From: a virus
Taxonomy: Duplodnaviria; Heunggongvirae; Uroviricota; Caudoviricetes
DNA: 64,000 nucleotides
Reading direction: 5' to 3' (one strand)
IMG/VR virus record: IMGVR_UViG_3300049460_000121
Coordinates: 64,001-128,000 of that record
The notes beneath the pieces are model-generated. The model was not told the origin of the DNA. It worked only from the letters and a program-made list of their open reading frames with translations, and ran no database searches. A program made the position numbers and the translations under genes. Shown here one piece after another: positions 693 through 3,132 of the stretch; the stretch's first letter is position 1; each line of letters begins with the position of its first letter.

Positions 693-734
693 AGCATAGA
701 CACCCCTGGGCGCAAACCCAGGGGTGTCTATGCT
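693..734. terminator. Hairpin between convergent genes (18-bp perfect stem, AGCATAG...CTATGCT)
   Basis: agcatagacacccctggg-cgcaaa-cccaggggtgtctatgct. Confidence 0.8.
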
Positions 735-742
735 CACCACCT

Positions 743-1165
743 TTAGGAGGGTAACGTATTGCCGTTCTTGTTGCCCCGTTTGCTGCCTTTCGGTTGCTGC
801 TGCTTATTAGCAGCCATCTCCTCCAGGTTCTTACGCATCTTGGCTGCTTCTTCTTCCTCTGCCTTACGGACCTTCCTGCCATCTTCCAGGAGCTTGTCCA
901 GGAACCAGCGGGGGAATTGCAACAGATCCATGAGTGAGGTATTCGTCAGCTCTGGGAGGCGGCACGCCACCAACTCTAAAGTCATCAACTCAAGCCGACT
1001 ACCCGTGATCGCGTTTTCAGCTGGATGCATCCCGATGATCGATAACGGATCGTCGAGCATGTGCGCATCGTGGTCGAAGATGCCGTAGTACTGATCGTAC
1101 GTCTCCATCATCGACAACTGAGCCGTCCAGTCATCCTTACCCTGCCACGACAAGAGGTTTTCCAT
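743..1165 (-). CDS. Hypothetical protein; probably the C-terminal extension of a -1 frameshift product of 1252..3132
   Basis: Frame stays open upstream past the T8 run at 1291-1298, with no start codon before 1165 and only a weak RBS. Confidence 0.7.
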   Translation of the reverse strand: MENLLSWQGKDDWTAQLSMMETYDQYYGIFDHDAHMLDDPLSIIGMHPAENAITGSRLELMTLELVACRLPELTNTSLMDLLQFPRWFLDKLLEDGRKVRKAEEEEAAKMRKNLEEMAANKQQQPKGSKRGNKNGNTLPS

Positions 1166-1251
1166 AATCGGACTACCGTTGGCGTACGGGAACTTCTTGC
1201 GACCAAAGCCTAGCAGCGAGACGTGATGGTATTCACGCTTGCCTTCGAGGG

Positions 1252-3132
1252 TTACCCGCCAGCACGCTTGATTTTGTGGTGGATTAGGGTAAAAAAAACT
1301 TCGATTGGGTTGATGCTTACCAGGTGAGGGTGCTTCGACAGCGAGTCACCGGTGAGAGGAACACCGCACGAAGGGCAGGCAGACTTTGGAACCGCTACAG
1401 TGGCGAGGGTCATCGCGTTGATGAACTTCTCGATAGCTTCGGCAATCTTGGCTGTCAGCTCACCATCGTCCGCGAAGGATTCCAGCAGACGGTCCAGGTC
1501 CTGGTCCGCTTTGTACTGGAGTTCGAGGTCGTTGGCTTCGTCACCTTGCAGAACACGAGTCAGCTCGGTCACCAGACCATTTTCTGCGTTCTCGTCCACT
1601 TTAACAACCGCTTCGATCCAGTGGCTGTAGGCCATGACCATCGCGATGTTGTTGGCACGCAGCAGGTAGGTCTGACGGTCAGCCTCGTTCGCGTAGCTGG
1701 TCATCAGCACACGGGCGCGGTTGTCCATCTCGTCCATCCACGCAGTCGCCTGACGCTCGTAGTCAGCCAGCGTAGGAACACGCATCTTGACTTTGAGGGT
1801 TGGGCTGATGTCGATGTAACGGCTGACTTCAGGACGAATGCTCTCCTGATAGGCCTTGACCGTCTTGATGTCGACACGGGCAGAACGTTTGGCCATCAAC
1901 GCGAACTGGTTCTCGTCGATGCGGCTACGACGCACGAACAACATACGACGCAGGTTGACCTTACGGGTCAACGTTTCACCACAGCCGCCGTGAGTGGTCA
2001 AGCACGGACGGTCGAGGTTGTAGCCATCCGGGAAGATGGTCGCAGCCGCGGCCAGCGTCAGAGGCTCGAGGTCGGTCAAGAGGATGACCTTCTTCAACTC
2101 TTCCACATTGGTGGTGCCGATGGTGGACTTGGTCACGAAACCCAGGATGAAGTCAGCCACAGCTTTGTTCAGGTACACGGACGAAGCTGAGTAAACCAGA
2201 CCGTTGCTGTCACGCGCCATTTCGATCTTCTCATCCAGCAGCTGAGTTTCCAGGCGCAGTTGACTGAGGACCGGAGGACCTTCGAGGGTCAGGTGCATGC
2301 CGGAGTGCCAGAGCACAGCGTTGCCTTCAGTTGCCAGACCCAGTTGGCCACGAATCCGCATCACGGGGTCGTTGCTCTTCGCCGGGTTGTTGGCAGTGAT
2401 GGCGATCTTCTGGTCACCGTTGGTCGGCAGGTTGTTCCAGGTGTCTTCCTCGAAGATCTTGAAGCCGAAACCAACACGCAGCGACTTGGTGTACGAAGTC
2501 ACGTTGTTGATGGCATCGAGTTCTTCAGGGGTGAGGAACACGGTCTTCTGGTCCATGTCGATCCCGGTGAACGGGTGACGTTGGCCGGACTTGACGATGG
2601 CGTAACGGCTTTTCTGCGCTGCGAAGACGCGGCCGTAGACACCACGACGAATCACTTCCAGCTCATTCGCTTCGAAGTTCGACAGCGCGAGCGAGCCGAG
2701 TTTGGCGATGATGGTGTCTTCGAGGACTGGCAGAGTCTCTTCACAGTTCAGACGATTGATCAGTTCACCTGCCCAAGGTGCTGGAGCCACGGGAGCTGCA
2801 TCATCCGCTGGTTCCTCAGCTGCCTGTGCTTGCGCTTCAACCGACGCATCGGCGAGTGCTGGACTGGGAGCTGCGATGACGTTGGTGTTGAGATCTGCGT
2901 CTGTGCTGACAGAAGCGAAGCTCTCAGGTTCTACATCGCCAGCCGGCCATTCATGTCCGTCTTTCGGGAATTCGTTCAGCAGGCCCGAAGGTTGGAGTTC
3001 AACCTCGCCAACCTCTGTGAAGTCGCTTGGACGCGTGGGCTCTTTGGGGAGGTTTTCCCATGCGACGTGTTGTCCTTCAACGTTGCCGACGGTGACGGGC
3101 TCGTCGGCATTGCTCCCTTGATCATCGCTCAT
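1252..3132 (-). CDS. Putative tail/baseplate-hub assembly chaperone with Zn-binding motifs and an acidic disordered N-terminus
   Basis: 626 aa. PCLTTHGGCG and CPSCG Cys pairs; KMRVPTL motif reminiscent of T4 gp26/gp51-like proteins; EVFF near the C-terminus is encoded on a slippery run. Confidence 0.55.
   Translation of the reverse strand: MSDDQGSNADEPVTVGNVEGQHVAWENLPKEPTRPSDFTEVGEVELQPSGLLNEFPKDGHEWPAGDVEPESFASVSTDADLNTNVIAAPSPALADASVEAQAQAAEEPADDAAPVAPAPWAGELINRLNCEETLPVLEDTIIAKLGSLALSNFEANELEVIRRGVYGRVFAAQKSRYAIVKSGQRHPFTGIDMDQKTVFLTPEELDAINNVTSYTKSLRVGFGFKIFEEDTWNNLPTNGDQKIAITANNPAKSNDPVMRIRGQLGLATEGNAVLWHSGMHLTLEGPPVLSQLRLETQLLDEKIEMARDSNGLVYSASSVYLNKAVADFILGFVTKSTIGTTNVEELKKVILLTDLEPLTLAAAATIFPDGYNLDRPCLTTHGGCGETLTRKVNLRRMLFVRRSRIDENQFALMAKRSARVDIKTVKAYQESIRPEVSRYIDISPTLKVKMRVPTLADYERQATAWMDEMDNRARVLMTSYANEADRQTYLLRANNIAMVMAYSHWIEAVVKVDENAENGLVTELTRVLQGDEANDLELQYKADQDLDRLLESFADDGELTAKIAEAIEKFINAMTLATVAVPKSACPSCGVPLTGDSLSKHPHLVSINPIEVFFTLIHHKIKRAGG

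Follow-up and report, generated by a model that had tools for sequence, protein, structure and literature searches.

The stretch of viral DNA analyzed here (64,000 nucleotides [nt], hereafter the window) is positions 64,001 to 128,000 of the virus record IMGVR_UViG_3300049460_000121, a complete genome of 267 kb. It contains the single copy of a gene homologous to phiKZ gp77, with a small gene homologous to phiKZ 076.4 immediately downstream. Our comparative analysis strongly supports a programmed -1 frameshift that would join the two open reading frames (ORFs) near the 3' end of the large gene. The best explanation as a whole, and in our judgment very probably the correct one, is that a programmed -1 ribosomal frameshift yields a short and a long form of a factor that assembles the tail hub without entering the virion.

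All locus coordinates are given on the minus strand of the window. The large ORF, 3132..1252, encodes 626 amino acids (aa) and ends in ...IEVFFTLIHHKIKRAGG before its stop, an ending also written ...NPIEVFFTLIHHKIKRAGG. Near its 3' end the 0-frame codons are GAA GTT TTT TTT ACC, of which GTT TTT TTT occupies 1299..1291, placing a T8 run at 1298..1291. Within this run lies a slippery heptamer of the X XXY YYZ type, T TTT TTT (1297..1291), whose two Phe codons are 1296..1294 and 1293..1291. The 0 frame then continues for only 12 codons as the tail TLIHHKIKRAGG plus stop (1252..1290), which overlaps the -1 frame and completes the last helix of the short form (helix 370-386 in the AlphaFold2 [AF2] model). 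The -1 frame opens at the TGA 1348..1346, is free of stops down to the TAA 745..743 and reads ...FFYPNPPQNQACWRVTLEGKREYHHVSLLGFGRKKFPYANGSPI-M..., its earliest ATG, GTG or TTG in the ORF listing being the ATG at 1165. A start-less stretch of 42 codons (1166..1291), comprising a Pro-rich linker (YPNPPQ...) and then a conserved HV....FG motif at 1225..1202, is followed in the same frame by the small gene called by annotators (743..1165, 140 aa, phrog_12109), which encodes a helical domain ending in a long helix. The predicted product is 626 aa without a slip and 796 aa with one, with the junction ...EVFF-YPNPPQ...; the predicted junction peptide of the phiKZ fusion is ...STFFYFGGLEVK..., where the two predicted products measure 533 and 687 aa. 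An earlier note on this DNA had described the T8 run, the heptamer, the open -1 frame, the TGA at 1346-1348, the lack of a start before 1165 and a fusion of about 796 aa, and on re-reading the window every one of these factual statements is correct.

The layout was compared over 52 distinct junctions, comprising IMG/VR loci together with FLC9, PA1C, pEa54 (pEa_SNUABM_54) and phiKZ; PhiPA3, 201phi2-1, Goslar, SPN3US and PCH45 were examined separately. The junctions of the four named phages among the 52 were inspected by eye and the remainder by script, and one locus (L021) was excluded as a false positive of the motif filter. The large protein was found by tblastn in 215 phage records, a pattern scan of IMG/VR gave 62 loci of 20-77% identity, and a pattern scan of metagenomes gave one true relative and one chance match (L088). 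In every one of the 52 junctions the -1 frame stays open for 149-184 codons after two Phe codons, the median for the +1 frame being 11 codons, and the 0-frame tail past the site measures 9-17 codons. Because the -1 frame opens just 3-6 codons upstream of the site in many loci, the frame change is confined to roughly 15 codons around the T run. The arrangement in PhiPA3, 201phi2-1, Goslar (gp81/gp82), SPN3US (gp39/gp40) and PCH45 is the same, and the gene context is alike in phiKZ, PA1C, FLC9, Goslar and SPN3US. The anatomy and its conservation are thereby demonstrated at the level of sequence, and the slip-site layout and -1 frame are present in all five phages in which the earlier note would have looked for them (phiKZ, 201phi2-1, PhiPA3, SPN3US and Goslar). 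The overlap between the frames is unusually long in PCH45 (L098, MN334766, minus strand, record positions ~210428-210560), where the 0-frame tail runs to 46 codons.

As a null model we used an equally long open -1 frame begun at a random codon of the same gene. The median null probability is 0.22 per locus, with values of 0.002-0.004 in the AT-rich phiKZ, L017 and L037 and of 0.002 in L059 and L060; the joint null probability across dozens of diverged lineages is negligible. The same comparisons dispose of a more trivial explanation, to which we give next to no chance, namely that the T8 run is a sequencing or assembly error or that the small ORF is a dead remnant. Homopolymers are indeed error-prone, and the window derives from a metagenome assembly. 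Nevertheless, the 52 distinct junctions and six phages that were cultured and sequenced independently share the frame relation, the 0-frame tail is both conserved and helical in the AF2 model, and the ratio of nonsynonymous to synonymous substitution rates (dN/dS, see below) marks the -1 part as live coding sequence. Since GAA GTT TTT TTT ACC, with its T8, recurs unchanged in L004 and L089, close relatives that were assembled independently, a homopolymer error is excluded.

The slip site itself carries a clear mark in its codon usage. Its first Phe codon is TTT in 52/52 junctions, and the second position is TTT in 38, TTC in 11 and TTG in 3, against 178 TTT and 579 TTC (23.5% TTT) among the other Phe codons of the same genes. 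The window gene has 14 TTC and not a single TTT in its last 500 codons outside the slip site, which is thus the only place where it uses TTT, and several GC-rich relatives behave alike. The heptamer is T TTT TTT in 29 junctions, T TTT TTC in 10, T TTT TTG in 3, A TTT TTT in 6, G TTT TTT in 3 and A TTT TTC in 1, so that a canonical X XXY YYZ sequence is found in 42 of the 52. These data demonstrate that the T run is under selection. Within the overlap, the -1-frame Pro is 81% conserved over the 52 junctions, compared with 29-60% for the overlapping 0-frame residues, indicating that the -1 frame is already being read before the 0-frame stop is reached.

Translation of the start-less stretch is supported by its own pattern of change. 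Alignment A2, of 43 -1-frame products, shows no variation at F30 and conservation of at least 90% at H24 and G31, which define the motif HV....FG at 24-31 residues past the site; in the window this lies 13-20 residues upstream of the ATG at 1165. Over the 29 codons between the 0-frame stop and this ATG, comparison of the window with L004 and L089 gave a -1-frame dN of 0.03-0.046 and dS of 0.67-0.97 (dN/dS ~0.05). Nine to ten of the 11-14 differences in these codons fall at -1-frame third positions, and both other frames contain stops. Such a pattern demonstrates purifying selection on the -1 frame, and hence coding, in a stretch that has no start codon.

We considered whether the small ORF could instead be a separate protein with its own initiation, at a start codon that is non-canonical or peculiar to a lineage, in which case the upstream opening of the -1 frame would be incidental. 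Gene callers assign it a start in all cases, in-frame fusions were not found, and in some relatives (PA1C, the L051-L065 clade and L023) an ATG, GTG or TTG does lie near HV....FG. However, the first such codon past the site is scattered between 18 and 135 codons downstream across the 52 junctions, Shine-Dalgarno-like matches at candidate starts are nearly absent among them, and in 40/52 loci no canonical start is placed so as to include HV....FG. In phiKZ, L037, pEa54 and the window, part of the conserved coding sequence precedes every canonical start, and no locus has a -1-frame stop between the T run and the small ORF. Separate initiation would also leave unexplained both the TTT usage at the site and the conserved -1 Pro in the overlap, and we consider it distinctly unlikely. 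What the alignments point to is a conserved coding sequence and a start codon that is not conserved.

The existing annotations reflect this pattern. In phiKZ, HV....FG is encoded in a 218-nt gap annotated as intergenic, gp076.4 being annotated as 80 aa only, and in pEa54 the annotated start (a 75-aa gene) excludes even the conserved ...SYGIFNH... core. The small-ORF family has 1598 cluster representatives in a library of 1.84 billion proteins; their called N termini are scattered over profile positions 1-61, and about 67 of the best 150 members start after the conserved motif. Position 41 of the phrog_12109 profile aligns to residue 14 of the 140-aa window ORF, indicating that family members are longer at the N terminus. 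Among public records, the downstream ORF is split off as its own gene in phiKZ (L066, NC_004629, 71442-71903), L003 (4001-4306), Goslar (L100, 2996-3418) and SPN3US (L102, 3025-3441); the truncation varies, leaving 45-218 nt of conserved coding sequence "intergenic".

The same long form could in principle arise by transcriptional slippage, with the phage RNA polymerase inserting an extra U at the T run in some of the transcripts, which would then be translated normally. Chimalliviruses use their own unusual multisubunit RNA polymerases, and the gene for the RNA polymerase beta subunit adjoins the locus. The site is a homopolymer of 5-9 T (T8 in the window), and a conserved RNA stimulator was not found in the window's clade. 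On the other hand, the run is only T5-T6 in 19/59 loci, which is short for polymerase slippage, and the codon-phased hexamer UUU UUY/G is what is conserved. In the PA1C-like clade (L002 3942-4010 and L051-L065; alignment A8) the weaker site A TTT TTT/C is followed, 3 nt downstream, by a conserved long hairpin, an arrangement typical of ribosomal frameshifting (consensus -13 kcal/mol, z -2 to -3.7, covariation almost nil); this hairpin looks like compensation for the poorer slippery sequence. The run keeps its phase although it ranges in length from T5 to T9, and hairpins accompany the weaker sites. We infer that it is most likely the ribosome that slips, on U UUU UUY, and we regard transcriptional slippage as unlikely.

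The large protein (phrog_4585, E 2.6e-76) begins with an acidic part that varies between relatives and continues into a conserved domain, about 390 aa long, that bears Cys motifs. The CPSC half of a Cys4, zinc-ribbon-like motif is encoded at 1366..1377 and precedes an FFTL motif. In database searches neither product of the gene has a Pfam match above threshold (E <= 0.1), their PHROGs matches are to families of unknown function only, and neither part matches a PDB chain by sequence. An AF2 model of residues 240-626, built with 43 relatives, has a predicted local distance difference test (pLDDT) score of 84 and a predicted template modeling (pTM) score of 0.84. Searching this model against the PDB with Foldseek/VIA gave nothing significant, the best results being weak proteasome-like rows of template modeling (TM) score ~0.1 and helical fragments of Z up to 5.7. 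Against the predicted structures of BFVD, Foldseek returned the protein's own family first and then at least 12 T4-like proteins of about 250 aa (E 4e-6 to 6e-4, probability 1.00, target-normalized TM 0.48-0.59), named as baseplate hub subunit, hub assembly chaperone or baseplate hub assembly protein T4-like.

The Pfam family to which T4 gp26 and gp51 belong, PF12322 (T4_baseplate), is the top Pfam family among the 43 members, 3 of which match it, and it is also the commonest named set among the Atlas neighbors (21/30 named matches, score 0.92). Moreover, the C-terminal signature of T4 gp26, ...AVPIKCPECGK...FFELL before the stop, has the same motif order as the jumbo phage consensus AIPxxxCPxCG...FFTL, and hhalign of the two Cys/FF segments gives a local alignment with E 1e-3 and a probability of 21%. 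The large domain is therefore probably a distant member of the T4 gp26/gp51 family. T4 gp26 and gp51 are listed as hub assembly chaperones, and gp51 is described as needed for assembly and absent from the particle (Leiman et al. 2010, PMC3004832, Table 2). The Goslar virion structure assigns the hub density fully to gp13, gp48, gp203 and gp62, with no mention of gp81/gp82, and phiKZ gp77 lacks the "structural" note borne by its neighboring genes. A role in hub assembly outside the virion is the best-supported function and, we think, somewhat more probable than its alternatives taken together. The proteins called gp77 in the Goslar and PCH45 papers are products of different genes.

The earlier note had proposed a G/GT-type tail assembly chaperone (TAC) pair. 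Short and extended forms made by -1 frameshifting are strongly supported and a pair of assembly chaperones is plausible, but the lambda G/GT family label fails. No Pfam match to the Phage_TAC_ families or to Phage_P2_GpE was obtained at E <= 0.1 for either product or for the 43 family members, P2 GpE appearing as an Atlas lead only (0.83). No TAC was among the Foldseek/VIA matches of either model, although a missing match does not exclude a TAC fold. It is because family match, size (the protein is four times too large) and synteny all disagree that we do not place the protein in the lambda G/GT family; the absence of an adjacent tape-measure gene, already remarked on in the note, holds for the window and for phiKZ alike.

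The domain added by the frameshift is less readily placed. Its AF2 model (pLDDT 75) has a poorly ordered linker, after which comes a helical domain whose final helix spans 37 residues, with pLDDT of at least 84 from about 13 residues before the window ATG. Foldseek/VIA against the PDB gave no significant match, the best (Z 5.0) being a common helix-loop-long-helix arrangement. The residues directly after the slip are Pro-rich, YPNPPQ in the window (1274-1288, minus strand) and FYPxxP in most relatives, and stand where the short form has the end of its last helix; prolines in succession could slow ribosomes just past the shift.

T4 gp51 extends past its IFKLL into the domain Gp51_C (PF28602, Pfam 38), which suggests a pairing of the short form with gp26 and of the long form with gp51. 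Gp51_C is an Atlas lead for the -1 domain with a score of 0.83 only. Alignment of the -1 domain with Gp51_C by hhalign gave E 0.06-0.24 and a probability below 1%, with aligned segments that differ between runs, and the scores from hidden Markov models (HMMs) equal those of shuffled controls. A match seen by eye between the two (YGIF.H...SI..MHP.E and YQINH...SIM.MIP.ER) was confirmed neither by hhalign nor by HMM comparison with shuffled controls, and a search of IMG/VR for diverse gp51 relatives returned close T4-like phages only. It is a tentative idea, and rather doubtful, that the -1 domain truly corresponds to the C-terminal domain of gp51. If it does, a single chimallivirus gene would supply chaperones of both the gp26 and the gp51 kind. 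Contractile tails of the T4 and phiKZ types would then generally have a hub chaperone in two forms, arising by frameshift or by gene duplication, a rule not recognized before and comparable to G/GT in other long-tailed phages.

Several observations weigh against the combined picture of a frameshifted hub factor. Ten of the 52 heptamers begin with A or G and are non-canonical for P-site re-pairing. The window's clade lacks a conserved RNA stimulator downstream of the site (its consensus fold has -1 kcal/mol), and no downstream RNA structure is universal, the mean z over all loci being -0.7. A few loci (L001, L006, L035 and L041) have a canonical -1-frame start upstream of the site, and a search of proteins of 325-2000 aa for natural in-frame fusions, which counts as weak evidence, gave none. 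With respect to the hub assignment, the PF12322 score is 13.8 bits against a gathering cut-off of 24.5 (E 0.046), and profile-profile links of alignment A3 to T4 gp26/gp51 reach a probability of only 21-26%, with short local matches at the CPxCG and VP motifs. A six-frame search of the window's own genome found no PF12322.

Taking these points together with the evidence above, we propose the following mechanism. While decoding UUU UUU (1296..1291), a fraction of ribosomes would slip back one base on U UUU UUU. Those that do not slip would stop 12 codons on, giving the 626-aa short form with its last helix complete. In the 796-aa long form, made by those that slip, the helix end would be exchanged for the Pro-rich linker, the HV....FG element and about 130 aa of helical domain. 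The annotated small gene downstream (phiKZ 076.4, Goslar gp82, SPN3US gp40) would then be the truncated tail of the long form. The two forms would most likely help to build the central hub of the tail, present in a fixed ratio and outside the virion, as lambda G/GT do for the tape measure; both this ratio and the hub role are what we infer from the comparisons.

The neighbors of the locus are homologues of phiKZ gp78, gp79 and gp80 (RNA polymerase beta) and a convergent gene, and by these genes the window genome is that of a nucleus-forming (chimallin-encoding) jumbo phage, as the earlier note had supposed. A perfect 18-bp hairpin (693..734, assigned to neither strand; RNAfold -41 kcal/mol, z -8.7) lies directly after the -1-frame stop, between the convergent genes, and likely marks the end of the transcript. 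A scan for sigma-70 and intrinsic-terminator signals made no call at this hairpin, which the intrinsic-terminator scan missed because a T tract is absent; the phage's own RNA polymerase may terminate there, or the hairpin may stabilize the mRNA end. At the other end of the large gene, the N-terminal ~240 aa (window 2800-3132, minus strand) are acidic, rich in Ala, Pro and Glu, and unalignable between relatives (alignment A1); this part is probably disordered and lineage-specific.

In the searchable literature we found no paper that connects phiKZ-like phages with programmed frameshifting or that names PHIKZ077/076.4, and genome records are likewise silent; nor did we find there a published frameshift in the gp26/gp51 family. 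phiKZ, PhiPA3, 201phi2-1, Goslar and SPN3US are the model nucleus-forming phages, and some of their relatives are candidates for phage therapy. In all of these models the locus is annotated as two unrelated hypothetical genes, the second variably truncated, and reading it as one recoded gene would correct the annotation of a core gene across the family, in every chimallivirus. It would also add a well-conserved frameshift site from bacterial viruses (U UUU UUY, often without an obvious stimulator) to those available for recoding studies, and offers a testable handle on the assembly of the hub in very large tails and on the function of T4 gp26/gp51.

Several known systems are comparable. In Escherichia coli dnaX (tau/gamma) and HIV-1 gag-pol (U UUU UUA), a -1 slip on a homopolymeric heptamer fixes the ratio of two products, and both rely on defined stimulatory structures. 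The U-rich heptamer of the jumbo phage gene is nearly identical to the HIV-1 site; in contrast to both systems, its stimulatory structures are conserved in some clades only, and the shift in dnaX shortens the protein.

The resemblance to T4 gp26 (208 aa) and gp51 (249 aa) lies in the protein: the predicted fold of the conserved domain is alike, the order AVP..CPxCG...FF.L is as in gp26, and neither kind of protein is in the virion structures. Furthermore, gp26 stops right after FFELL, whereas its longer paralogue gp51 continues past the equivalent IFKLL. In contrast, the jumbo phage protein has additional N-terminal parts and over twice the length, its score stays below the Pfam cut-off, and no homology of the -1 domain to Gp51_C was detectable by sequence. 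T4 relies on two genes and on an internal start within gene 26, and has no slippery run (GAG TTC TTT GAG). T4 gene 26 (L067, 3803-4429, minus strand) makes two nested products by means of this annotated internal start (26', 95 aa); it ends GAG TTC TTT GAG TTA CTA TAA, and its stop overlaps the start of gene 25.

In expression, the gene would parallel lambda gpG/gpGT and the -1 frameshift that is conserved in the tail assembly chaperone genes of long-tailed phages and occurs also in P2 (E/E+E') and Mu (gp41/42). The jumbo phage protein differs in its size (626 aa with a Cys4 motif, compared with ~130 aa), in belonging to no TAC Pfam family, in having no adjoining tape-measure gene and in its likely target, the baseplate hub rather than the tape measure. 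What it would share with G/GT is a -1 slip on an X XXY YYZ sequence near the 3' end of a morphogenesis gene, a nested pair of short and C-terminally extended forms, a downstream ORF without a start codon of its own and a protein that is apparently absent from the virion.

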